From positions 1 through 59,963 of the forward strand of contig MU271465.1 of the NCBI GenBank assembly GCA_021432655.1: a stretch of DNA of 59,963 bases, read 5' to 3'. This stretch comes from Atractiella rhizophila (taxonomy: Eukaryota). The stretch's first letter is position 1. Each line of letters opens with the position of its first letter. The notes beneath the pieces were generated by a model. That model had not been told where the DNA came from. It saw only the letters and a list, made by a program, of their open reading frames with translations, and made no database searches. Position numbers and translations under genes: made by a program. Of this stretch, positions 1,304-53,510 are shown one piece after another.

Positions 1304-4300
1304 TCAATGCCATATCCAATATTCAAATCGTGTTTCAGGTTCTCCTGCTTCCAGACAGAGTCTTTTTGCCTCCTCGAACTCCGTCTGCGCGACTTCGCTT
1401 AGGCCATGTAGAAGATTGATTTCCCCGACATTGTAGGCACAGTCGGCTTGTCCTAATTTGCCTAATTTATCTCCCAATTCCCCATAGAGCACCTTAGTCT
1501 CCTTAAACGTCCTCAGAGCATCCTCAGTGGCACCTTCCTTGCGAAATCGGCAGGCAAGAGACTCGGTTAGTGAACACTTTAGCCTTAACAGATCGGGGTG
1601 CCTCTGATCTTGTCCTATCACTTCCTCCACGACGCAAAGTGCCCGTCGTAAGAGCAGGATCGAGAGCCAGAGATTCACATATGGGGTTTTTGACATTTTC
1701 TCCACATGGCGGACAATTGACAAACGGTTTGGTAGGTGTACCATGCTTTCTAGCAAAACATGTTCGAGATTTTGATACTGTTCACCGAAGAATAGTCGCA
1801 GGGATTTCCTAAGTGCTCTATCATCGCGGTTGATATCGAACTCTTCCGCAATCTTCTCGGGTTTTTGCATGAGATGGTTGGCAAGAGGCTGAAGTGACAC
1901 AGCAAGAGTCATCGGAAAAGGAGGGCTGGAATCACGTACAAGGCGGTTGATGTATTCGCGAATAGGCGCGAGCATACGGAGAGTACCTTGGAGTTCATCG
2001 GCAAGCCCGATCTTTGAAATCACTGCGATGATCTTGAAGACGTCCTGACACACATAAGATCTGGATATGAGCGTTGATAAATCGCTATGGGACAGGCCGT
2101 CAGGCACCCATGATAGGAGAGCAAGCCCAAAAAACCCGCACTCCCCCTGCTTTTTGAGCACTGGAGAATTGAGGGAGAACGATATCGACTTTTTGAGCGT
2201 CATTGTGCTTTTGCTCTCTTCGTCCCAGAAAACATCTGTCTTTCTATCCTTCCACTCGTCGAACAATTGTTTGAGTGTCATGGTTAAATCCTCATTGGCA
2301 CGTAGAGCGAACAGCTTGATTGATAGAGCATGGAAGTCTAGTTCTTCAACTAGCTGTTTGATCAGTGACAGGGTAAAATTCTCTTCTCTCTGATAAAGGT
2401 TCTTGAAGAGTTCCAGTGCACCTTCTTCTGGCAGACGACTAATCAAGACCCTGAAAAACACTACTCGCTCGTCGGCTCTCACGTCCAACGGTTCAACTTG
2501 ATTCCCGCGATGGGCGACGGCAAGCACCGAGCCGACCGAGTTGTTTGAAAGAAGTGTTCGAAAAAAGTGTTCTTTTTCGTCATTGTCAGCACGCAGCGGA
2601 GTTTCAAAGTTATCCAAAACGAGAAGACATTTTCTACTTCTGAAGTAGTCAGCGGCAACGGCCAGTGATGGTTTGCCAGATCGGGGCAGCGCAAAGACAT
2701 CGTCACAGATATGGTCGGAAAGCCGAGCAAAGGTATCAAAGTTGTCGCAGCGAACCCAAAAGCGGAGATCTTCTCTACTGCCGCCCGTCAAATCTGTGAA
2801 GTACTGCTCGATCTCTTCGGAGTGCACGGTGTTGAGTGCAACGGTGGATTTACCGCTTCCAGCTCCACCCACAATCGCAACATGGCGCCGGTTAAGTATA
2901 GCGTTTCTAGCACGTTGGATCTCATCTTCACGGCCAAAGCAAGAGCCTGGAGGCGGTAATGGCAGCCGTCGACGAACTGCAATCCGCTCAGCACACACTA
3001 CAAGAGCATCAACACAATAGCAACAGAAGCGGTAAGAGAACTACCCCGAACGAGATATTCAGCAGCATTCCGCACTTCGTACCTCATTACGTCCATGTAA
3101 GCCTTTGTAACGCCCACGACGTCCTCCTTTCTCTCTTTGACGCCTCCCATCTTTTGGACTGAAAAGCGGTGGTAGTGATGTGTTAGGCGTTCAACCTGCA
3201 TCCTCATCTTCGCCTGATCGGCCACCTGGGAACAATCTTCGGCAATTGCCTTCACAGCGATTTCAATCTCGTGTTTAGCACAACCCCACTTGATAGCTGG
3301 CGCGATCCCTGACCCCAAAGAGACAAGACAGGCGACTTGGCTCCCTTCCCCCCAAATGCGCTTCGATTCTTCGATCGCCAATCCTGCTGGGTTATTGTTT
3401 CCGCTGGCGACATATTTCGTTTTGTCGATGACGATAGGAGGGAAGATGTCAGGAGCAGAAGAAGTTGCTCTTGCCGCCTCCCACACACTACATCGAGCGG
3501 CAAAGCGAGCTGCGTGGCGGACGTCGTACGTGCGCATCTCTGTCGAAAAGACGGCTGATTCGTGCTTTGAGACGACGAAGGTTCTGCATCGATCTACGAT
3601 CTTCTCATCCTTCATAGGAAGATGGGATGACGGTCCAGATGATGGAGCATGACGTGCAATGATGTCGAGGAAGACGGCTTCGAGCCTCTCTGCAGAGTAG
3701 ACGCAGCCTTGTTCCGAAACTGGACCTTGATAGGAAAAAACTGTCTGCACGATCTCCTCATAGGCGCGCATGGATTCGCGTACCGTCATGCCCAACCGTC
3801 CGAGCATGAGGGCAATCCATCCGCCAGTGGAAGTGCCGCAAATCAGGTCGAAAACATCGCACGGCCGAACCTCTTCTCCTTCCGGCACGCAGAGGAGCGC
3901 TCCAACCTCAAGCATGACGGCCTCGAGCATATAAAGGGTGGAGAAAGTATAGATGCCGCTGTTGTCGATCGCGAGGATTCGGAGTCCTTTGTCGTTCGTT
4001 GTCTTGACATTGTCCGGGACTTCGAAAATTTTGACAGTTGGAACGTGGGAGGTGACAGGGGATGTAAACGATGTTGGAGTGGGAGTTCTGGACGGAACGG
4101 TCGTCGCGGTACGCCGCCCTAACATACGAAGTATTGGCTGAAAAGCTTTCGTTTTGGCGCTGAGGAATGGGTGGGATCGAGAATCCAGTGGCATCACTGA
4201 CTGGTTGCGAACTGTATCGCATTCCCCCGATGGAGTTTCTTGCGATTTGGTGCCAAATTGGTCGTTGTCCTCAGACGAACTCCCTAGGTCTCCATTATCG

Positions 4301-4359
4301 TGATCGTTGGCAGGCGAAGAAGGAGGCCTGAGCGTCTTCATAAAGGCAGAGGCATCCAT
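1304..4359 (-). CDS. NLR-like protein copy 1: patatin-like domain + STAND (NB-ARC/NACHT-like) NTPase + short TPR tail; two exons joined by intron 2998-3044
   Basis: Patatin motifs LRILAIDNSG, FDLICGTSTGG, WEAARATSSAP. Walker A GGAGSGKS, Walker B LLVLDNFE, HALSIKL. About 2 TPR-like units. The 47-nt GTAGTT...TTGTAG intron joins EYLVR-V-CAER in frame. Start taken at the first ATG (4359, MDASAF). Confidence 0.85.
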
Positions 4360-6683
4360 CGCGTTGAGAAAATAATATACGGTGCCGACGATAACTGAAT
4401 GAGAGCTGGTCCTGATTTGTTGAATGCGGGAACACACTGAGAAATGGAAGTCACGTATCTGTAAATGGATGCCGTTAGTAAGCAGGAGAGCCAGTGAAAA
4501 GGCAGTGTGAATTGATATCGGAGGGAGGAGAAGACGAGCGGAATGCGATGGAGGAGATGTTTGATCCAAAAGATCATCCGTACGTGCGGATGCATTGAAG
4601 ATGGGTGGAGCGCGCTCCACGACTGCATGTGGGAAACGCAGGACAAGTAGTTTGTCAATCTCAATAACTAAAGCTGGGAAAATCAACAAACAGATCTTCC
4701 AGTGCTGAGTGAGGAGCTCGTAAAAGGGTCTCGTGAATTAATCATGATGAAGATATGCAGGTGTAATTTGAGAAGGGCGAAGAACAGACAGAAACCGACG
4801 TTAAGCCCTTCTCCCACGCATCCCTCTACGCGGCCATGACGGTTGTCAATGTTTAACCCAGCCAGCCTCAACCGTTGACAGGACCAGTTTATACCTGGGA
4901 TAACTTACGAGAACTTTCACCAACTCTGCAGATCCTGCGAAACTATCAAGCAACTTGAAGTAACACCGTGGCGCGATTCAAAATCTGAACAGCAGAATTT
5001 CTTTGAAGCTGTGGAGGAGAGCTGTTAGTCGATGACTGGCAATTCAGAAGCAGATTGATCATCGTTTGTCCCACATCCTAAACCTGCAGTGCCCGACGTT
5101 CCCGAAAGTGAAAGGAACAAAGATGATGACTAACTTCCTCCAGTGATCCCTCTGTAGGATTTACACTTCGATTAGCTTTCTGCATTGTCGGATGACTGCA
5201 ATCCCGAATATCTATTTTATGCTCCATGATTTAGTCGAGTTGCATGAACCCTTTTTAATGGATCCCGAGGGAAAGAGTAGAAGGCGGGTGTTGGGAATGT
5301 CGCTCTGCTGTTTAAGCCTGTCTCGCATCACTTCTCCCATTACCTACCTGTCAAATATCTCACAGGTGGTGCAATGGGCTCTAGTAGTCGATCGATGGCT
5401 TGTATAATCAGCGGCTTCATGTATCCCGCGAGCTTGTGGCTTTCTGCACAAAGTGTTTTGCTTTGGCTTTGGAGTGGATGTAGACTAGGGATGGCCATTG
5501 AATGGAATTGAATCGGGCCAGCCCTCGTTGATTCGCAGACTAGAAGTAAGGAGGTACTTACAAGCCACATAAATGTAGTGTAGAGAATCGTCTGAACTGT
5601 AATGGTACTCAGCAAGCATTGTATGTGCATTAACCAGACCCCTTCGGTATGCTTTAGAGAGAATGGGGGAAAATCGTTAATTATCTTGTTCAGGTGATTG
5701 AGCAAGTCTAGAGTCCAGCCCCAATGTGTGCGGACATTAGGGATCAACATCCTTAGAGTATCATTGGACACATGCTCTACACCTCAGTCAATGCCTTCTC
5801 AAGCTCCAGCAGCCAGTTGTTTCGTTGGCACCAATCATAGGTCACAATGAAACAAGTCTTTTGACCATCTTTGAAGAAGGAATTCACCCACATATTGCTG
5901 ATACCATTGCTATTTCAGAGCATAAACCCAATACTCTCGAAAAATGAAAGACCAGAGCTTGGAATCTTGATTGTAACTATCATCAACGACTGGACACCAA
6001 ATCTCTAGGTTCAGACCCTATCCAACCTCTTCGTCAACCTTTCAATTGACAACCTCAATTCACTAGAAATACCCCTCCTCCTCCTCAGATAGCTGGACCC
6101 ACGACCACTATGACTCCTGATAGAACCAAATTCTTTTGAAAATCTCTCATCTTTGATTGTTGTGGTCAATCTGGACATGTTCAAGCTGTCTTTGTAATCC
6201 CAATCGATCTTCAAGTTAGAAGTACAATCAGAATGGCTTTGGAGAACCTATGTTCCTCTATATCGGCACAGGGAAAAGACCACATACATTATAGGAGATA
6301 CTGGATTAGTGGTTCGTGGAGCGTGAACTACACATGAAGGAGAGGATGAGCCGGAGAGAATGATATGGAATTGAGGGGGAGAAGAGGAGCACGGACAGTA
6401 GCACTAGTGATCGAAGCGATGGACACTGCCATTCCTTCACAATACCTTCAAGTTCGCGTTCTAGACTCTGTAACTTTGTTCACAAGGTGGTGGTCAGTTG
6501 CAGCGACTATCTTTGGTTGACAAAAAAGTCACTGACACAAGATGAGGAAAAATGACGGACGAGCTCCCAAATCGAGATCTTGCCACCACAGGCAGAGTTT
6601 CCTCTCGAGAAGGCAGTTAACTTCAGAGAGGTACGTCTAACTTATGCGCAAGGGAGTGATTTCAGTTCTGTTTCCTTGTAGTC

Positions 6684-9542: not shown

Positions 9543-11236
9543 ATGGGTCATATCAGCCGACATGCACTGCTAAGCCGCCGCAACCTGCGGCCAGTGTGCG
9601 TGTCTCTAGCCTCTAGCGCGCCGAATAAGTTCTGACAAAGGATTTGTAGCCAGTTCCCTCTCTCCCGCTTCTCGTAATCTCCATAGTGAGCCTGTCCTTT
9701 CGCCAGCGTGACATTTTAGCTGAAGAACAATTCTTAGCTCTGTCAAAACCATCCTTTGTCGCCTCTGCTTCGCTCAACTCGTTACCCGCCCGCTCATCGT
9801 ATGGCCACCTGTCCTTCATGTTCATTGACGCTTCCATTGGATACTCATACTGCGGGATAGGCTTCCATTGGATACTCATACTGCGGGATAGGCGACCACA
9901 GCGCTATTGCTTCGATCCTGAGCGACCACCGCGAAATGTCTTGCTTATCAAGAAACACCACGATGCACCGGCGTTGGATGCAGCAAAGAGAATCATTTCG
10001 TGAGGCTTTCCTTTCCAAGCCATGCGTGTTAAGAAACGGGGTGGAGTATAGACACATCACCAGCGTTCATCCCAAAGCGAACCTTCACCTCGAACCTTCA
10101 GTCTTCTCTGAGTTAGGCAGGAGCTTCTGCGAGGGGAAGAAAAATCTGATCGCTTCTCCCGGCGACGGTATGGATGCCTCTGTCAGTTGGCAGAGATATA
10201 CAGTGACTCTGTTGTGGGTACAGATGAGCCTATCGATCTCGTCCTCGCAATCGGAGGCGATGGTACAGTTTTGCATGTTTCTCATCTGTTTCAAGGTCCC
10301 GTACCACCAGTCGTTGGCTTTGGCGGCGGAGGATTGGGCTTTTTACTTCCTTTTCGTGAGAACACCTCCGTCCAACTGATGAAAAAAGCCTTGATAATGA
10401 GCTGATAGACATAAATGATCTCCCACATGTTCTCAAAGAGCTTATGCGTCCTGGAAAAGAGTTTGAGGTCTTACATCGCATGAGACTTCAAAGTTGGATA
10501 GTGGGAGAACAAAGAGAGGCGACCGGTCTGTTCTGGCTTTATTATCCGCTAAAGGGAGCTCACCGAGCATTACAGTTCCAACGCTAGCTCTCAACGAAGT
10601 CCTTTTACACCGCGGTTCATCCCTTTGCCTTACCCTCCCTCCCTTCCCAACTTAAACTATGTTATGCAGGTGCTTCGGCCCACATGATCCGCCTCTCGAT
10701 CTCAATCCATTCGACACCCCTCACCGAGGCACTAGCCGATGGGCTCCTTCTCTCAACACCGACAGGGTCCACAGCGTATTCGCTCTCAACGGGAGGACCG
10801 ATAGTGTCTCCACGTGTCCCAGGAATCCTACTCTCACCTGTGTGTCCGAGGAGTCTGTCGTTCAGGAATTTAGTGTTGGATGAAGGTGCAGAAGTGGCAG
10901 TCCAGGTGAGACCTCCGATTTGTCATAGCAGGGAGGCATTGTTAAATGACGGGTGAACAGATATGTGGAACTTCCCGTTCCAATGCCCTCCTCACAGTAG
11001 ACGGTCGAGACGTCAGGTTCCTTTCTCCTGGCGAGAAACTCTTCGTCAAGAAAGGACCAGAGCCAGTTCCATGTGTTATGCCTCCCATGCTCTCTTCGGG
11101 CTCCGGATCTCCTGCCAGCGAGGGACATGAAGGAGGAGAGGGTCGGCATTGGAACGATGACTGGGTGAAGGATATCAACTCAATGTTGCGGTTTAATTAT
11201 GGGTTTGCCTCGAAAAGGTTGCTTAGTGACACTTGA
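9543..11236 (+). CDS. POS5: NAD(H) kinase, POS5-like (probably mitochondrial), multi-exon
   Basis: Spliced exons give DLVLAIGGDGTVLHVSHLFQGPVPPV, GLGFLLPF, ALNEVLLHRG, ADGLLLSTPTGSTAYSLSTGGP, SPVCPRSLSFR and DWVKDINSMLRFN. The Arg-rich N-terminus MGHISRHALLSRRNLRP resembles a targeting peptide. Start approximate. Confidence 0.88.
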
Positions 11237-35249: not shown

Positions 35250-35654
35250 TGTTAGGGCTGACACTATGTGCGGTCGCCGATAGGCGATGCGTCTGTAGTG
35301 GAGATAAACCTAAGGGCATGATATGACATGAAGACTAACCTGTAGTAGAGATAAACCTAAGAGAATACTCTAAGGTCACCTCCACTACTCTCTGATCTAT
35401 ATATACAAGCGGAAAAACACTGCCACAAAGCGTAGAGGAGAGCAGATGAAACATGTAAGAGAACTAAAAGGGGAAGTGACAGTGGGATTACGCGGAGTTA
35501 ATAAGAGGAGGATAGGCACAATTGGGCTAAGTGGTGGTGTAGGTGCAAATGGGCGAACGGGCGAACGGGCGCCGATTCACAGGGAACGCAAATGGGCGAT
35601 AGGAGACGCAATCCGGCGAACGGGCGCCGATTTGTGTAAGATGCAAACCTGACA
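35250..35654 (-). mobile_element. Solo LTR (subfamily A, same as the Gypsy element), with a small internal deletion
   Basis: Reverse complement of 41647-42103; TSD AAAGG on both sides. Confidence 0.92.
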
Positions 35655-36231
35655 AAAGGGAGATGCACGGTGCTATGGAGGCAGCTAGTATGAGGAACGG
35701 TGCTTACTCCAGGAAGTCAAGCATCAGCGAGTATGCAACACACATTGGGAATCCTAGGAATTGGTCATCCCCTCGATATGCATCCAATTTGTCAGGTTTG
35801 CATCTTACACAAATCGGCGCCCGTTCGCGGGATTGCGTCTCCTATCGCCCATTTGCGTTCCCTGCGAATCGACGCCCGTTCGCCACTGCGTCTCCCGTCG
35901 TGCAAATCGGCACCCTTTCGCCCGTTCACCCATTTGCACCTACATCACCACTTAGCCCAATTGTGCCTATCCTCCTCTTATTAACTCCGCGTAATCCCAC
36001 TGTCACTTCCCCTTTTAGTCCATCACTTAGAAAGGATGTTCCAAACTCTACACCTCACAACCGAAAAGCAGTTCAAAAAAATCGAACAAGACCTCATAGC
36101 AAGTTTCAACTAACAAAACACACAAACCTCCCAAAATGCACACGAAATTGCGCAACTGAGGTCCGACGTCCAGAACACAAACGACCTAATCTTACAATTA
36201 CTGGACTCCAGACTGCCTCCTCCTAGAGACA

Positions 36232-39200
36232 GTGGAACCACCTCCACCTTTTTATCGCGAACAGACCCAATACCCCAAACTTACTCTCCTCCCTCTATAC
36301 CTCAAAATGCACAAATTTCGCCTTATGCAGGAATCAGACTTGCCACACCCTCTATCTTCAAAGGAGTGCCTAGCTCAGTGCCGACCTTTCTTTGCGAAAT
36401 TTACGTCTACATATCTGCCATCCCAGAACAGTTCCCTTCAGAAAAGTCGAACATCTTATTTACTCTATCGTATATGAAAGAAGGAGATGCCGAAAAATTC
36501 GCCGCTGGGATACTACGCTGACTTGTCGAAAATGAGGAACAGATTTCGTGGGAGCAATTTTTGTCGGAGTTCAGATCATGTTTTTGCAAAACTGACCACA
36601 AACTTATTGCGCAAACGAAACTGTCTTCCCTGCAACAGAAGGGCAACCTAGAGTCCTACATCATCAAGTTTGAGGAGTTGGCAAATCAGGCAGACTTTGA
36701 TGATGAGGTGCTCACATTTTTCTTCAAACGGGGCCTCAACCCTGCCCTACACATTAAGGTGACACAAGGTGATTTCCCCAAGCCCCTTGAAGAGTGGAAG
36801 GAAAAAACGCGGCGAATCAACACAGAAGAATTTGCGCATTCCAGCTTATGGAACCCAAAATACACCTTCAGCAAAGAAAGATCACTCAAAATCTACGAAA
36901 CAGAAGGACAACAATGGACCCCCTCTGTACCGACCGAGCGCCGCTTTGTCGCCCATCACCGCTTCGCAACCTCAAGGACCCCAACGATATGGAGGTGGAC
37001 GCAACGAAGTTCAGACCGTCTCGTTGTCGAAGATGCCAAAAGATCGGACAAAGAGAGAAGGAATGCAAGGTATCCATGAGCAAAGAGCAATATCTTCGTG
37101 CACAAGGAGAATATTTCGACTCTCGTCTCATAAAACAAGAACAACAATCTGGGCAAATCCCCGACCGGTCGCCGAAAGGAAGCGTTGCGCAATCATCGGA
37201 TCTGGAGGAGGATCTTTGAGACGGCGATGGGTGAAAGGAGTGTCCCTGTCGCGGACTTGCAATTCATTTTCGTTATCTAAAATCACTTCCAACAAAGCGC
37301 CGCTTTGCGCAGATTTCCCTTCTCCCGAACAAGACTCCCCATTTCCAAAATTGCGTTTTCCATCTTGGAGACAAAGATGCGCTGATGTCGCAAAATGTAC
37401 GACAAAGTCCATTTACGTTCGACAACGGCATCCCTAGTCAGTTCGAAAACGAAACTCAGGACCGCTTTCCATCACCCACACTCCCATCGCCGGCACGCCA
37501 CATCGGCACTCGTCGACAGCGGGGCAACCAATTCCTTTATTTCTCCAAAACTCGTTTCTGAATACAACCTACCCGTCATTCAACTCCCTTCCCAGTGCCC
37601 GTTTACAATATCGACAGATTCCTCAATCAGGGGGTTCCATCCATTCTGTCGCTTATTTACCCATTTCGATCGCCGCCCATCATGAAGTTTGGCAATTTGC
37701 AGTGGCGGAGTTGGGGACAGTCGACATGATTCTGGGTCATGACTGGCTAAGACACCACAACCCAGGGAGTAACTGGGCGTCAGGGAAAGTTCAGTTCTCT
37801 TGTTGCCCCACCAGTTGCAACGCGGTTGATGTGTCTACCACACGAGACCAACTTCCATCGTCCTCTGCCTCAATACACGCTGCAATGACAAAATCGCAGA
37901 AACTGGCGAAAGACGCAGCGGCGATGAGACCAAAGAGTGTTGTTGAAATACCGACGCAAATCGCCAATTTTGCAGACATTTTCGATGACGAAAAATTCAA
38001 AACCTCGCTTCCTCCTCGACGACCTTGGGACCATGCCATCAACCTCAAACCAGAAGCTCAACCATATGCTGGTCCCGTCTACCCCTTGAAAAGAGACGAA
38101 CAAGCGGCGCTCGACCAATTCATTAACGCTGAACTGAGCGCCGGTCGTATACGTCCCAGCACAGGTGAACATGGTGCTTCCGTCTTTTTTACACACAAAA
38201 AAGACTCACCCAAACTTCGTCCCCTTTTCGACTATCGTAAGTTGAATGAAGCCACAATCAAGGACAAAACTCCACTCCCTATCCAAGCTGACCTCTTCTC
38301 TATGGTCTCTGGTAAGAAATTTTTTAGCAAGATTGACCTGAGAAAAGGTTTCAACAACGTTCGCATCAAAGAAGGAGACGAGCACAAAGCGGCGTTTCGC
38401 ACAAATTGTGGACTTTTCGAACCATTGGTGATGTATTTTGGTCTCTGAAACTCACCAGCGACTTTTCAGGCTTTCCTAAACTCTATTTTTCACGCGATGA
38501 TCGCCGCTGTGTTCATCTTCATATACATTGACGATATCCTCATTGCGACAGAGACTGAAGAAGAACATTGGGAACGTGTTCGACAAGTTTGTCAAATTTG
38601 CGCGAAAATGGGCTTTACATAAATTTGCAGAAATGTGTTTGGTGTCAAGAGGAGGTGGAGTATCTAGGCTTGATCATTTCCAGCAGAGGAATTGAACCAG
38701 ATCCAGTGAAAGGTGCAGGAGTGATGGATTGGCCGGAACCAAAAAACATGAAGGAAGTCCAAATGTTCCGCGGTTTCGCTAATTTCTATCGCCGCTTTTG
38801 CGACAGATTCAGTCACATCGCACGACCTTTATATGAACTGACGAAAATGGAGGTTTCCTGGGTCTGGGGGGTAGATCAACAACGTTCGTTCGCAGCTTTA
38901 ACACAACTCATGACTTCGGCGCCCGTTTTGGTGCATCCTGAACAAATAGGACGGTTTTTGCTCGAAGTCGACGCGTCAAATTTCGCGGCAGGCGCAGTTT
39001 TGTCGCAAATAAAGCCTGATGGGAAATTTCATCCTCTCGTTTCGTGTCAAAATCGCTCGACGCCGCCCAGAGGAACTATGACACCTACGACAAAGAAATG
39101 CTCGCGATTATGCGTGGACTGCAAGAATAGAGACACCTTCTTCAAGGCACTGATGAGCCATTTCTGATCTTGACCGATCACAAAAATCTTGAGTATTTCA

Positions 39201-41074
39201 GAATGCCACAAAGGTTGAATTGGCGACAGGCACGCTGGATCACCGAACTTGGATATTTCAACTTCACTCTTTTGCACCGTCCTGGACGAAACTCCGCAAA
39301 ACCAGATGCGCTCAGTCGGCGACCGGATCACAAACCGGCGACTTGCGACAACTTTGACGTAGTATTACTCCCAGAACGTTGTTTCAACACGGATCGTATC
39401 ATGATCAACGCGACTGGGTGCGCGGTTGCGCTCACAAGACAAATGTCGGAGTTGAGTATACTGGAACGTGTGAAAGAGGTACCTGAACGGGGAGAACAAG
39501 TAGTCAAAGCCTTGAGAGAGATCCTAGACGAACCAGTCGATGCAATTCGCCGACGGGAGTGGCAAGAGGTCGATGGTGCTGTCTACTTTCGCGGAAAACT
39601 CTACATTCCTCGCGACGACGAAATTCGCCTGCATGATTTGCAAATCGCCGGTCATCCAGGCGTAAAATCGACGACTGCTCTCGTAAAAAGATACTACTGG
39701 TGGCCAGGTTTGGCGCATTACATTCGCCGCTATGTCGGCACCTGTCACACTTGCCACAGAACGAAAAACTTTCCTTCCCCACCTGTCGGGTTTTTGCAAC
39801 CAAATGACATTCCCACACGTCACTGGCAAATTATCAGCATGGACTTGGTTGGACCACTCCCAGAATCTGGGGGGTTCGACACGATTTTCGTCATAGTTGA
39901 CAGACTCTCAAAATGCATCCATCTCATCCCCACCCATTCGACGATGGATGCAGAGGGCCTTGCAAGACTTTTTCGCGACCACGTATGGAAGCTACATGGA
40001 CTTTTCGATGTCGCAATTTTCGATCGTGGAAAAGAGTTTGTGTCTAAATTCACATCTGCGCTTTTTCGCCTATTGGGTATCAAAGGCTCACCATCAACAG
40101 CCTATCATCCACAAAGTGATGGCCAGACTGAACATATGAACCAAGAAGTTGAGCAATATTTGCGCATTTTCTGCAATCACCGTCAGGATAATTGGGTAGA
40201 AGGACTCCCCAACGCAGAATTTGCAATCAACAATCGTGTCAGTTCAGCGACGGGCGTAACTCCATTTTCGCTCGATTGCGGTCAACATCCCCGCATGGCC
40301 TTTGAACCCATCTCCGACGAGGACGTTCCCGCAGCGGCGCAATTCGTCGAAAAGATGCAAATCGCCAACCGGGAAGCACAAGCGGCAGTCGAGCAAGCAG
40401 CAGATCTCATGGCAAAATATTATGACAGAAAACGCGCACCGGCGCCCGAATATCATGTCGGCGATTTCGTCTGGTTGAGCGCGAAAAACATCAAATCGAC
40501 GAGACCTGTCAAAAAGTTAGACGACAAATGGCATGGCCCTTTTTGCGTTTTGCAAGTTTTGGGTCCCCTCGACCTTAAACTCGAGTTCGTCCTCTTGATC
40601 CTCATCATTGTCCTCAAGTAGCGCATCATGATCGTCTGCCTCAGTTTCTTTTCTATTCAAGTTTACGAGAAGTGTTGTGCCATCCTCATGGAAGATACCA
40701 GTGTTCCATGTGGGCCTGATACGAAAAGTCAACGAAGATGACATCCCTGGCAGAGTCCAGTTGCCCAAACCACCTCCGGAACTGGTGAATGGAATTGAGG
40801 AATGGGAAGTACAAAAAATGTTGATGGGAAATGGTTCGGTACCCGAAATAGAGTTTTCAAATATCGCGTTCGATACAAAGGGTATTCACCATCTCAGGAC
40901 GAGTGGATCAACATCACAGATCTAGAAAATTCGCAGGATGCTATAAAAGACTATCACACTGCACACCCTCTCGCAGTTCGTCCCGATTCCATACCGAACT
41001 CTGCCAAAAATCGCCCAAATGTGCGTTTTCGTAACCTTCGACGAAAAAGCGCTGAAGGGTCTTCCTCACTTTAA
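36232..41074 (+). pseudogene. gag-pol polyprotein with stops and frameshifts
   Basis: Fragmented ORFs; premature TGA in YFGL*NSPAT at 38446-38448; several frame switches. Confidence 0.9.
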
Positions 41075-41646
41075 GGGGTCCAACACCCCTATATGCCTTG
41101 CCGGGTGAAATCCTAGTCTTTGATACTTAGGTCAAGGCAAGGCGCCGACTTGCTCCTCAACGGGCAAGTCGGCGACTTGGTTGTTGGTGAGTCCATTCGT
41201 CGCCTGTCAAAGACGAATGCTCATTGCGTTCTCGCACCATCACCAATGTCGCATTTACAAAAATTGCCCTCAATCGCAAGGTCCCCTCCCCCTCACTTTA
41301 AGAGGTCCTACTCCTCTACATGCCTCGCTGGGTGAATCCCTAGTCACATTGTTGAACATAGGTCTAGGCGAGGCGCCGGTCTGTTCCTCAACGGGCAGAT
41401 CGGCAACCGGTTTGTTGGTGAGCTGTCCAGCCCGTTTTCGCAGAATGGACACTTATTACACCAAAACAACACCTGGTCAACTTTGAAAAAATTCCTCAAT
41501 TGCAAGGTACATAATGTCTCTTTGCTCCAACAATTTCATCTCTGTCCAAGCGGTGGCTGGTACTTCAGGCGCTTTTCGCAAAATTGGCAAACGTCACGAA
41601 GCAGAAGTTTATGCTTACTGCAAGCACCACAGAAACTGGGGGGTGT

Positions 41647-42103
41647 TGTCAGGTTTGCATCTTACGCAAATCGGCACCCGTTCGCGGGATTGCGTCTCCC
41701 ATCGCCCATTTGCGTTCCCTGCGAATCGGCGCCCGTCGCCACTGCGTCTCCCGTCGCCTATTTGCACGCAGTGCAAATCGGCGCCTGTTCGCCCGTTCGC
41801 CCATTTGCACCTACATCACCACTTAGCCCAATTGTGCCTATCCTCCTCTTATTAACTCCGTGTAATCCCACTGTCACTTCCCCTTTTAGTTCTCTTACAT
41901 GTTTCATCTGCTCTCCTCTACGCTTTGTGGCAGTGTTTTTCCGCTTATATATATAGATCAGAGAGTAGTGGAGGTGACCTTAGAGTATTCTCTTAGGTTT
42001 ATCTCCACTACAGGTTAGTCTTCATGTCATATCATGCTCTTAGGTTTATCTCCACTACAGACGCATCGCCTATCGGTGACCGCACATAGTGTCAGCCCTA
42101 ACA
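41647..42103 (+). repeat. 3' LTR of the Gypsy element (457 bp)
   Basis: TGTCAGGTTTG...CCCTAACA; TATA-like TATATATATAG; matches 35790-36019 directly and 35250-35654 inverted. Confidence 0.95.
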
Positions 42104-48805: not shown

Positions 48806-51800
48806 TCAGCACCACAGATCTTCCATGCCAACACTACATTCCAGGGTGATGTTCTGCTTTCCCATGGGAAAGTATTTAAAGTCTTTGGTTGCTTTGGCCT
48901 CTATCTCGATCGGAAACAGTCTCGGAATCAGACTTCTTGCTTGGACAAGCAAGGAAAAACAAGGTAGACTCAATCTTCTCCCTGCAACTTGTTCAATACA
49001 CCTGTTCTTGAATTGGTGGTGGGTGGTTTCACCTTTGAGCTTCCAGGTTGCCCTTGGTGTATTAGTTCCCAGTGAGCGACATTCAGAAATCCACTCGGGG
49101 CGGAAGGTTAAACTCTGGTCGAAATCGTCAGGATAAGCAATTGTTTTGCCATTCCTATCTCCATTCCACCTTGCCTTCATCCTTCACTTTCATTTCGTCA
49201 GTTGAACTTGAGATTTTGGCCAGAATAAAGAGGTTTGTACGGACCAATTCTTCTTGATGTTGTGTGGAAACATCGTAATTATTCGTGGATAGTTGCGAAC
49301 ATCCACAACATTAAACACAACTTTCAGAGTCAGCTCCGCAATGTTTTGGGCATCAAAATCAAACGAGAACCTAAATCCCAAGCAACCGGGCCAACCAGGC
49401 ATCTTATCCATGTTTACCTAATCAGACCTTCACATAAACGCGACCATGATCGAGAAACGGTGGAAAAACAATCACTGACCATAGTCACTTCCAGCCGTAC
49501 GCCATGACTGTGAAAAGCATTCCTTTCACTCCGTTGCGGATCCAGGAAACGAAAAGCATTGATTAGGATGTTCTCCTTGTTGAGCTGATGGCTTCGTCCG
49601 CTCACATTAGCTCCTTCATCTTCATTTGATATGCCCGATGAAATGCCAAAAGATGGAATGTGGTCCCAAAGAGCACGGAACTTTGTTCGAGCATGGTCTC
49701 CTTGGATCGCAAATGGCTGATCTGCACTCCTGAGTGCATCTTCATGTAAAGCTTTTACATCGGCCTCCTTCCGTCGATCTCCTCTCCTGAGCACATTTTC
49801 TTGTAACACTTTAACCTCATCCTCTTTCCATCCGCATTGAAAAAGTGCTGTCACCAAGCTGTCGATGCATTCGGCCTGACCCCCTCCATGTCCACATTGC
49901 CCATAGAGCACCGCCGCGATCTCTAAAGGCCCCTTGGCCATGTGGCTCTGACCGGATTGAGAATAGACCTTCCCGATTAAGTGGAAGCATTGGCCGCGAC
50001 CGTGTTTATCCCCCACTTCTGCATACACGTCGTCCGCATCAACGAATGCCTTCAGTGCTTCTTCGAAGCGGCTGCCCCGAAAATCAATCTCTCCAAACTT
50101 TCGGATGCAGTGGGCTATGCCCTGTCGATCTCCCACTTCGCTATATAACACCTTCGCCTCCCCAAATGCCTTCAGTGCATCCTCGTTCCGGTCACAATCA
50201 AAGTTAATCTCTCCAACACTGAAGATACAGTGTGCTTGACCTCGTCGATCTCCTGTAACTCCATAGAGCACCATCGCCTCCTTGAACATTTTTACAGCGT
50301 CATCCTTCCTGCCACAGTGAAAGTGGATCCTCCCGATACTGAAGATGCAGTTAGCTTGACCCTGTCGATCTCGCAATTTGTTGAAAACTGCTTTAGCCTC
50401 TTCAAACTGCTTCAAAGCTTCCTCGTTCTGGCCACACCGAAAATCAATCTCCCCAACATTTCGGATGCAGTGCGCTTGACCCTGTTGATCTCCTAATTCC
50501 TTATAGAGCACTTTCGCCTCCTCAAACGCCTTCAGCGCGTTTGCCTTCCGGTCGCATTGAAAGTCTATCTCCGCCATGTTGCGGATGCAGTGGGCTTGGC
50601 CCTGTCGATCTCCCACTTCCCTGTACAGCAGCCCCGCTTTCTCAAACGCCTTCAGCGCCTCCCCGTTCCGACCGCGTTGAAAGTCGATCTCCCCGACGCT
50701 GCGGATACAGTGGGCTAGGCCGCGTCGATCTCCTGCTTCTCCATAAAGCACCTTCGCGTCCTCGAACGCTATCAACGCGTCCTTGTTCCGCCCAGCTCGA
50801 AAATCGATCTCTCCGATGCGCCGAATGCAGCGGGCTTCACCCTGTCGATCTCCCACTTCATGATAAAGCATCTTCACCTTGTTGAACATCGTCAATGCGT
50901 CCTTGTTGGCCCCGTGATTGCGATAACAGTGACCAAGCGACTCAGTAAGCGAACGCTGCAGTCTCATCAAGCTAAATTCGCTCTGATCTGTAGAACATGA
51001 CGTTGCTAGCGCTGTCTCGACGACACATGCCGCCTGACGGAAAGGTAGGGTTGAAAGGTAGTGGTTAAGGCGCAGGAACTCCGACATGTTGTTCAAACGG
51101 GAAACAAATGATAAAGGATCCGGTAGGTGTTTCATGCTTGCTACCAGGACATGTTCGAGATTTGGGTATTGTTCACGAAAGAGCAACAGTGCCTGAAGAT
51201 TCTTGCCTTTTTCGAACTGTTCAATAGTTTTCTCAGCATTTTGCATGAGATGATTAGTAAGAGGCCTGAGAGACGAAGCGACCTCGAGCGAAAACGGTAG
51301 TTGGGATTCAGATACGAGGCTGTTGACATATTTACGAATAGGAGCTAGCATACGAAGAGTGCCTTTGAGGTCACTGGCAAGCCCAATCTTCGAAATAACG
51401 GAGATGACTTTGAAGGTATCGGGAGGGTCAGACGGTCCACAAATGAGTGCTGACAAATCACGGTGGGATAGACCATCAGGAGCCCATGACAAGAAAGCAA
51501 GCGCAAGGACAGCGCGTTTTCCCTGCTGTTTGAGAGCTGGAGAATCAAGGGAGAAGGAGATAGAGGTTTTGAGTGTGACCACGTCTCCGTTGTCTAGGTT
51601 CCACAAAACATCTGTCCTTTTTGCCTCCCACTCTTCTGCCAATTCCTTGAGTGTCATCGTGGAATCCTCATGGGCACGTAGAGCAAATAGCTTGATTGAT
51701 AAAGCATGGAAGTCCAGCTTTTCCAACAGGCGTTCAACGAGCGGGTCAGAAAACTCCTCTTCTCTCTGATATGAGTTCTTAAAGAGTGTGCGGGCAGCGT

Positions 51801-53510
51801 CTTTAGGCAAAGCGTTAACTGGGACCCTAAGAAACGATACTGACTCATCCGCGCTGACATCTAAAGGTTCGACTTGATGTCCGCGATGGGTCACGACCAG
51901 CACTGACCCCACTGAGTTGTTCGAAAGAAGAGTCCGAAAGAAGTCTTGCTTTTTATCGTTGTCAGCAAGCAGGGGAGTTTCAAAGTTATCCAAGGCGAGA
52001 AGGCATTTTTGACTTCGGAAGAAATCTGCTGCGGCCTCCAGTGATGGTTTGCTGGATCGAGGCAGCGCGAAGACGTCGTTACAGATGTGGTCGGAAAGTA
52101 ACCCAAAGCTGTTAATGTTGTGGCAAGGAACCCAGAAGCGGAGATCTTCTCCGCTGTTTCCATTCATATCTGAAAAGGATTGCTGAATCTCCTTCAAGTG
52201 CAGGGTATTAAGGGCGATGGTGGATTTTCCGTTCCCAGCTCCGCCCACAATCGCAACATGGCGGCCCTGAAGTATAGCTTTTCTGGCCTTTTTGACCTCA
52301 GCTTCACGCCCAAAACAACTTCCGGGAGGCGGTAGTGGCGACTTTCTACGAACTGCAATCCGTTCACTCGACGCTTCAAAGAACGTCAACATGGTATCAA
52401 CGTGAGAGCTAAGAAATCATACCCTGCGCGAGACATACAGCAGCATTAAGTACTTGGTGGCCCATTCCTTCCATATATGCCTTCGTACAGCCCACCACAT
52501 CCTGCATCCGCCCCCACTCCGCCCAATTTATGCTTCCCGTCGTATGGGCTGAAAAGCGATGGTACCGATGTGCCAGACCTTGCCCCAGCATGCTCGCCTT
52601 CAACCAATCGGCTACCTGAGAACAATCGTCTACAATGGCTTTCAAAGCAGACTCAACTTGGTCTATAGTCTGTCCCAATTTGACGGGCTGAGCGAGCCCT
52701 GACCCCAAGGAGACAAGACAGGCGACTTGGCTCCCTTCTCCCCAGATACGCTTTGACTCGTCAATCGCCAATGCCGCTGGGTTATTATTTCCAATGGCGA
52801 CATATTTCGCTCCGTCGATGACGATCGGGGGAAAGAAGTGAGGTTCGGAGGAAGTTGCTCTTGCTGCTTCCCACACCGTACATCCAGCAGCAGAATGAAT
52901 TCCATCGAGGCCGTCGTACGTACGCATCTCTGTTGAAACAACTACATTGGATTCGTACCTTGACACCACAAAAGTTTTGCATCTATCTCCGATTGCCGCA
53001 TCCCTCATAGGAAGTTGAGAGGGCGATACAGACGACGGGGCGTGTCGTGCGATGATCTCGTGGAAGACGGCTTCGAGCCTCTCTGCAGAGTACAGATAGC
53101 CTTCTTTCGAACTTGGGGCTTCCTCGGAAAAGACATTCTGTACGATTTGCTCATATGCACTGATGGATTGTCGAACAGTCATTCCCAACCGTCCGAGCAT
53201 GATGGCCATCCAACCTCCCGTGGAAGTGCCACAGATGAGATCGAAAACATCGCACGGCCGGACCTCTTGTCCCTTTGCCTCGAGGAGTTCTCCGACTTCA
53301 AGCATGACAACGTCGAGCATGTAAAGCGTGGAGAAGGTACATATGCCGCCATTGTCGATGGCGAGAATTCGGAGTCCCCTTTCGTTGGCCTTCTTCACAT
53401 TCTCTGGAACATTGAAAATCTTGACATGTGGCATGGCGTCTTGTTCCCGTATAGCCTATTAATCTATGTTAGATGAGAATGGCTGAGAAGATTTAAGCGA
53501 CCTCGACCAT
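48806..53510 (-). CDS. NLR-like protein copy 2: patatin-like + STAND NTPase + TPR array + probable spliced C-terminal domain
   Basis: Same motifs as copy 1 (DNGGI, GTSTG, GGAGNGKS, LLALDNFE). Intron 52374-52422 joins CLAQ-A-SSERI in frame. Possible micro first exon at 53510 (intron 53456-53501 with CTAAC). Putative introns 49418-49479 and 49182-49244 extend the frame to 48806. Without them the ORF stops at 49414. Confidence 0.87.
49850..50940 (-). repeat. Coding tandem array of 120-bp (40-aa) TPR-like units: 7 well conserved plus degenerate flanking units
   Basis: Consensus GDRQGQAHCIRxVGEIDFxCGRNEEALKAFEEAKVLYxEV; the DNA motif CCTGTCGATCTCC recurs every 120 bp. Confidence 0.95.

Follow-up and report, generated by a model that had tools for sequence, protein, structure and literature searches.

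PLP-1 of Neurospora crassa is described, in the available parts of PMC12881547 and PMC10197012, as a NOD-like receptor (NLR) with a patatin/NB-ARC/TPR architecture, and reviews, in the text available from them, report that it needs the activity of its patatin domain. For AbCapV, a patatin-fold phospholipase of the cyclic oligonucleotide-based antiphage signaling system (CBASS), the accessible text of PMC12480259 identifies S58 and D192 as the catalytic dyad, with D192 as the general base, and places R21 so that it points at the phosphate, which it is proposed to stabilize. According to the same text, the S58A and D192A changes each abolish hydrolysis and growth arrest, and filaments still form. 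Here we describe two paralogous genes of the root fungus Atractiella rhizophila, copy 1 (1304-4737, minus strand) and copy 2 (exons at 49478-52373 and 52423-53434, minus strand), whose patatin-like domains keep the nucleophilic Ser but lack the general-base Asp and the glycine-loop Arg. Both genes lie in the window, by which we mean the entire 59,963-bp scaffold that was analyzed. We consider it very likely that the canonical dyad has been lost and that the domain is under selection.

Catalytic residues of the two patatin-like domains

The patatin open reading frame (ORF) of copy 2 runs from 52409 to 53434 on the minus strand and encodes 341 amino acids. The Pfam Patatin profile PF01734 matched residues 25-224 over profile positions 2-191 with 53.7 bits, compared with a gathering score of 27.7. 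An AlphaFold2 model of the domain had a mean predicted local distance difference test score (pLDDT) of 89 and a predicted template modeling (TM) score of 0.90. In Foldseek this model matched AbCapV (E = 7.6e-16, TM 0.70) and patatin-17 (1OXW/4PK9; TM 0.74-0.75), indicating that the patatin alpha/beta fold is kept in the predicted structure. Over 339 residues, the patatin parts of copy 1 and copy 2 share 66% identity. A check of the sequence confirmed that both carry the motifs an earlier note on this DNA had listed, DN[GS]GI[CY]T, GTSTG and YVA[IS]GNNNP. In copy 2 (all minus strand) these are the glycine loop DNGGICT (53336-53356), the nucleophile elbow GTSTG with Ser71 (53216-53230) and YVAIGNNNP (52778-52804). 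The corresponding segments of copy 1 are DNSGIYT (3946-3966), GTSTG (3823-3837) and YVASGNNNP (3388-3414), likewise on the minus strand.

We searched 1.84 billion representative proteins with HMMER, which gave 4470 matches at E <= 0.001, and examined the best 150; these are the closest to a query that itself lacks the Asp, and fractions among them are not estimates for the whole family. Most of the 150 read DGGG[IV]RG, G[TS]STGG and [YF][VI]DGGxGxNNP at the three motifs, and the general-base Asp that stands in DG[GA] before NNP is absent from both window copies. HMMER placed the "dg" of the relatives as an insertion relative to the copy 2 query, and MAFFT placed a two-column gap in the window sequences (KYV--AI-GN--NNP against VYVDGGM-SSHCNNP). 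Because the HMMER insertion and the MAFFT gap agree, we conclude that the Asp was lost by deletion of a DG dipeptide and not by substitution. Thus the shared loss of the Asp and the loop Arg proposed in the earlier note was borne out in both paralogs, and extended to 16 further proteins, but its description of the Asp change as a substitution was not.

Residue losses were counted from the columns of a 153-row tree alignment, from which we excluded P0168, a duplicate of copy 1, and the long-branch sequences P0020, P0052, P0133 and P0135 (in P0020, P0052 and P0135 the Ser itself is missing). The Asp column held D in 132 rows, a gap in 11, G in seven, P in two and A in one. All 11 gapped rows belong to the Atractiella clade, and the row with A, P0011, is also from Atractiella. 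At the glycine-loop position an Arg or Lys was present in 123 of the 141 rows having a residue there. The loop changes G28N, R32C/Y and G33T fall at positions conserved at 99%, 92% and 100%, respectively, in 106 canonical relatives. The GTSTGG elbow is invariant across the clade. No acidic residue occurs at or beside the dyad position in the 18 clade proteins, save for an Asp directly before NNP in P0152.

To place these residues on a characterized enzyme, we counted along the 8ZR9 chain of AbCapV in two alignments to PDB sequences, one made with phmmer and one with a profile of the clade. C32 of copy 2 fell opposite R21, Ser71 (of GTS) opposite S58, and A213 or I214 opposite D192; the segment "kyvaig..nnnp" aligned with "eyvDGGlfaNDP" of 9wn1 and "nyfaDGGlvaNNP" of AbCapV (8zr9). 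By this correspondence, of the three residues that AbCapV needs the window domains retain only the Ser, the other two being lost. With neither the general base nor the Arg that binds phosphate in place, the canonical Ser-Asp phospholipase A reaction should be unable to run.

A further candidate for the missing Asp is the D of IVIDG/IVIDK, which the earlier note had raised as a possible dyad substitute. This residue is D207 in copy 2 (IVIDG, 52811-52825, minus strand), and we rejected it because it occupies a hairpin-turn position and occurs together with the true DGG Asp in relatives. In the AlphaFold2 model, strands 204-206 and 209-212 flank D207 and G208, which sets these two residues one full strand apart from position 213, and the blocks covering residues 201-220 have pLDDT values of 96 and 90. 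The hairpin position in the 140 relatives with a DG[GA] Asp is D in 30, G in 60, N in 17, E in nine and another residue in the rest. P0009, from the same genome, reads ITFDNTVYVDGG and thus has both Asps. In the phmmer and clade-profile alignments to PDB sequences, D207 stands opposite a G or E of the CapV hairpin, and MAFFT likewise set it opposite hairpin residues. Since relatives with DGG share this residue and its hairpin location, D207 is best explained as an ancestral turn residue rather than a relocated Asp.

In a census of paralogs drawn from protein databases, the DG deletion was found only in A. rhizophila, in 19 rows with the region visible that correspond to 18 distinct proteins, among them the two encoded in the window; some of the 18 may be fragments of one gene. 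The 14 Atractiella rows of the FastTree phylogeny formed one clade with a Shimodaira-Hasegawa-like support of 98, and the gap-bearing rows were nested inside it. From this nesting we conclude that the deletion arose once within the A. rhizophila lineage and that the gene then multiplied. Three Atractiella proteins fall outside the gap-bearing rows: P0007, which has a shortened loop; P0011, which has A for D and no deletion; and P0009, a paralog from this genome that is less closely related, which keeps DGG and has the loop DSGGLRG.

Gene structure and selection

The patatin-like exon of copy 2 (52423-53434, minus strand) is supported by the ORF, Pfam, AlphaFold2 and Foldseek, and its end is fixed by a joint in a contig. 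It is directly followed, on the same strand, by a second ORF of 992 codons (49414-52392). The contig, of 3728 nt, comes from X1, a public run whose kind is given as "?" and which is not recorded as RNA. It spans 49478-52373 and 52423-52597 and omits exactly 52374-52422, a stretch with ends CT..AC on the plus strand, or GT..AG on the minus strand. This is the phase-1 intron of 49 nt that had been predicted earlier from the sequence. The contig has a depth of 32, and the patatin and NB-ARC/TPR frame is open across the joint for 1323 codons. Because the joints are GT..AG, we took X1 to be transcript-derived, and because the contig joint fuses the two ORFs in frame, we conclude that 52409-53434 represents exon 1 of a patatin/NB-ARC-like/TPR gene.

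The exon at 49478-52373 (minus strand) encodes an NB-ARC-like domain, a P-loop STAND NTPase, followed by about 10 TPR-type repeats, as assigned by Pfam and BLASTP. Its ORF contains the P-loop GGAGNGKS and a TPR_12 match at 5e-32; matches to NACHT and nSTAND1 reached 23.3 bits and stayed below threshold (26.7 and 27.1). BLASTP weakly matched this part to the P0156 NB-ARC region (E = 2e-4), with the P-loop GGAGNGKS and the Walker B motif LLALD aligned. Copy 2 therefore has the layout of a fungal NLR, with an N-terminal effector domain, a P-loop NOD (nucleotide-binding oligomerization domain) and C-terminal repeats in a single polypeptide.

At the two ends of the gene the structure is less firmly placed. 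Further joints or loose ends of X1 contigs were found at 49478 and 53457. At the loose end at 49478 the final 30 letters match 49386-49415, pointing to a probable 62-nt intron near the 3' end (49416-49477, minus strand), which would probably replace the final ~20 codons of the 992-codon ORF. The putative start is the ATG at 53434-53432 (minus strand), although a further exon upstream may contribute some residues. Loose contig ends suggest a 46-nt intron (53456-53501, minus strand) just upstream of this ATG; its removal takes out an in-frame stop, and an ATG at 53508-53510 would then add about 10 residues, with the frame read by eye. We also observed a weaker joint at 52597-52656 (minus strand) that skips 60 nt in frame, with GT..AG on the minus strand. 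The skipped part covers about residues 260-279, two helices in the C-terminal part of the patatin domain, and another contig is unspliced there; the skip may reflect an intron that is optionally spliced or a bubble in the assembly.

The public model of the copy 2 locus, P0165 (391 amino acids), is 100% identical to copy 2 and disagrees in its splicing with the 49-nt intron of the X1 contig: it exits the patatin ORF after ...LNAA, enters the NB-ARC exon in the wrong frame and soon meets a stop. In the model of a paralog, P0153, the proposed junction is used and the patatin domain continues into the P-loop. Many short "FabD/lysophospholipase-like" models of A. rhizophila may likewise be mis-spliced NLRs.

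We measured selection by the ratio of nonsynonymous to synonymous substitution rates (dN/dS), comparing copy 1 with copy 2 over 336 codons of the patatin ORF by the Nei-Gojobori method, with bootstrap limits of 2.5-97.5%. The ratio was 0.25 (0.18-0.35) for the patatin ORF, 0.21 for its Pfam-matched part and 0.28 for the NB-ARC/TPR ORF, with dS between the copies of 0.75-1.0. The ratio is thus not near one, the value that the earlier note had named as refuting its reading. To examine where the clade departs from the family, we took the 55 positions that are at least 80% conserved in the 106 canonical relatives and compared them with nine full-length clade rows. The clade retained 48 of the 55. 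Four of the seven differences are conservative (L26I, I187V, A196S, T245S) and three lie in the glycine loop (G28N, R32C/Y/A, G33T); the DG deletion falls in insert columns and is additional to these seven. Because non-conservative change clusters on the catalytic apparatus and the remainder is held, we conclude that the pattern reflects a specific functional shift and not erosion.

Copy 1 has a patatin-like exon provisionally placed at 3045-4044 (minus strand), in an ORF open upstream to 4737. Its phase-1 intron of 47 nt (2998-3044, minus strand, GT..AG) is predicted from the sequence, with the frame open across the join, and equals that of copy 2 in position and phase. The NB-ARC-like exon (1304-2997, minus strand) ends at 1304-1540 after about 1.5 TPR units, compared with about 10 in copy 2, and tblastn found no more TPR-coding sequence downstream. 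Copy 1 is a receptor that has been truncated, or else it is turning into a pseudogene. Between the two copies, at about 35600-42000 on the plus strand, lies a Ty3/gypsy-type retroelement with gag, reverse transcriptase, RNase H and integrase matches in Pfam, its frames split into several ORFs. Near-identical ORF translations at 35603-36226 and 41336-41956 suggest its long terminal repeats. The ORF at 10588-10953 (plus strand) matches the ATP-NAD kinase C-terminal domain PF20143 at 8.5e-25 and is probably a single exon of a housekeeping gene.

Output of the domain and rival explanations

We propose that both genes belong to an A. rhizophila-specific expansion of PLP-1-type NLR genes, with patatin, NB-ARC-like NTPase and TPR parts. 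The patatin domain of the clade has preserved the whole fold, the GTSTGG elbow and the NNP helix cap, while a two-residue DG deletion has removed the general-base Asp and the DGGGxRG oxyanion/phosphate loop has been rebuilt to DNGGIxT. Canonical chemistry, in which the Asp deprotonates the Ser and the Arg holds the phosphate, would then be blocked. Purifying selection and the apparently spliced mRNA suggest that the domain would still be the N-terminal output module of the receptor. Its output would most likely be made without lipid hydrolysis, through a lipid- or membrane-binding or a protein-recruiting surface, and this surface would become active once oligomerization of the NOD clusters it. 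Judging from the sequences, we regard a selected, non-canonical patatin module with a non-catalytic output as the probable explanation overall, and that the domain is truly non-hydrolytic as only marginally favored. The decoy, lipid sensor and adaptor functions put forward in the earlier note are candidate roles, and the evidence speaks neither for nor against them.

Several observations weigh against a non-catalytic output. Across the clade, neither Ser71 nor any other residue of the GTSTGG elbow varies; because other lineages with losses often lose the Ser too (19 of 139 rows) and this clade keeps it, Ser71 may still matter. An unexpected base may also lie near Ser71, the clade-specific invariant polar residues E161, E169 and H292 being candidates. 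A non-catalytic output would be a departure from the patatin NLRs known. In addition, dN/dS comes from one pair of paralogs only, and the case for expression of copy 2 consists solely of the GT..AG joints in a run of unrecorded kind.

The most probable of the alternatives is that the domain remains a hydrolase but with altered chemistry. In that case Ser71 could work with another base, or the protein could be a slow Ser-only esterase or acyltransferase, perhaps acting on a substrate without phosphate, since the Arg is gone. Such an enzyme would account for the two loop glycines and the NNP that are kept along with the elbow, for the retained pocket-forming fold, and for the patatin part having the lowest dN/dS among the regions tested; the three polar residues named above could supply its chemistry. 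It would have to work, however, without the acid that is missing at and next to the dyad position throughout the clade apart from P0152, and with an oxyanion-hole glycine loop that is itself changed at three of seven positions, and D192A alone inactivates AbCapV (PMC12480259, as far as its accessible text goes). We therefore view altered chemistry as a possible but clearly less probable explanation.

We also considered that the family is decaying, such that the copies are dead and on the way to becoming pseudogenes and their shared changes merely trace back to a single ancestor that was inactivated before it was copied. Many Atractiella members are indeed fragments or odd gene models, copy 1 stops early in its TPR region, and a Ty3/gypsy element sits between the copies. 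Against decay, the dN/dS of 0.25 was built up after the loss, at a dS of ~0.75, most family-conserved positions are retained, and copy 2 has a long open spliced frame in a well-covered contig. Fragmentary models can also be annotation errors, and P0165 is mis-spliced with respect to the contig. Decay is thus improbable. Least probable is an alignment artefact in which D207 is the real dyad Asp of a canonical enzyme, displaced in sequence: all 11 rows of the clade alignment have D207, and the G after it in copy 2 mimics a DG motif, but the clade member P0005 carries G at this position, which in relatives with a true DGG is mostly taken by turn-like residues, and all three alignments and the predicted hairpin argue against it.

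A selected patatin module with a non-catalytic output, as we favor for Atractiella, may have counterparts in other fungi. The Ser is missing from 19 of the 139 non-Atractiella rows (G stands there in 17 and N in two) and the Asp from nine, such that 21 rows lack at least one of the two and seven lack both. On the tree, the Asp state must have changed at least 8 times and the Ser state at least 11 times. Dyad losses occur in patatin/NB-ARC/TPR or NACHT proteins (P0012, P0092, P0120, P0135, P0137, P0140 and P0147), and P0040 and P0138 combine patatin with TPR or NPHP3_N domains; the sources named are Mycena, Sphaerobolus, Ceratobasidium, Rhizoctonia, Hypsizygus, Gloeopeniophorella and Sphagnurus. 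These lineages mostly swap the Asp for Gly, and in them the Ser is usually gone as well (GxGxG or GxNxG), whereas in the Atractiella clade DG is deleted, the Ser is kept and the glycine loop is rebuilt. The suggestion of an undescribed NLR subclass in the earlier note is therefore upheld in part: there is a DG-deletion clade, but it is confined to one species, and Ser and Asp have been lost independently in other fungal lineages.

Two of these proteins show further features. P0012 of Rhizoctonia solani (1484 amino acids) has two tandem patatin-like domains, reading GAGTG and GTGTG, followed by NB-ARC and TPR, and is thus a double pseudo-patatin NLR in which both domains are without the nucleophile Ser. 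P0040 of Hypsizygus marmoreus is a 1278-amino-acid patatin/TPR protein that keeps the Ser and has Gly for the Asp. P0186, a free-standing patatin of 354 amino acids, shares its 90%-identity cluster and its contig with P0040, and their accessions are two apart; the two may represent a receptor paired with a free domain, or one gene split between two models.

We tentatively suggest, as a broader possibility that is at present rather doubtful, that dyad-less patatins are recurrent, positively maintained NLR output modules in Basidiomycota that act without lipid hydrolysis. This reading would cover both the Atractiella DG-deletion clade and the Agaricomycete NB-ARC/TPR proteins with GxGxG, with G for D, or with both. 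Possible routes are membrane binding driven by oligomerization, or service as sensor or decoy partners of active patatin proteins. If it is true, patatin NLRs would divide into enzymatic and non-enzymatic functional types. Annotating genes like those of the Atractiella clade as "lysophospholipase-like" calls for caution in any case. The clade is a natural test of whether the NLR patatin module needs hydrolysis at all; if it does not, patatin would join those immune output domains whose action depends on clustering or membrane binding and not on catalysis. Copy 2 and the DGG-bearing P0009 of the same genome form a matched comparison pair for a clean experiment.

Comparison with known systems

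Pseudoenzymes are common across enzyme families, and patatin NLRs are already known. We found no description of dyad-less patatin domains in NLRs in a literature search by title and abstract (subscription papers and supplements lay outside it), and the dyad-less, DG-deleted variant appears new. A survey of effector domains in fungal NLRs (PMC9815663) contains zero occurrences of "catalytic" or "inactive".

In layout, the closest systems are PLP-1 of N. crassa and HET-Z1 of Podospora anserina, NLRs that control allorecognition cell death that have the same order of patatin, P-loop NOD and TPR as copy 2. The window domains differ from them in being without the dyad Asp and the glycine-loop Arg, PLP-1 being compared by its description only. 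When we scanned the 54 ORFs of the window against Pfam, we did not find a SNARE (sec-9-like) domain, in a scan at the level of ORFs by which split genes could be missed.

In fold, the CapV and CapE phospholipases of CBASS (8ZR9, 9KEJ, 9KH6/7, 9IOM-Q) are the best PDB matches by both structure and sequence. They are patatin-fold death effectors that are turned on by oligomerization into filaments, which parallels the oligomerization of NLRs. CapV has and needs the S58/D192 dyad and R21, whereas the window domains have only the Ser. The PDB chain scoring best against the clade profile, 9kh7, reads YVAGG where the otherwise matching 9wn1, 9wn0 and 9kh6 read YVDGG. This chain is apparently an engineered Asp-to-Ala mutant, and the natural sequences of Atractiella are similar to it. 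With patatin-17, the founding Ser-Asp lipid acyl hydrolase, the window domains share the fold and the GxSxG elbow. They differ from it, and from PF01734, in that the DG[GA] motif of the Asp is absent and the Gly-rich loop is altered.

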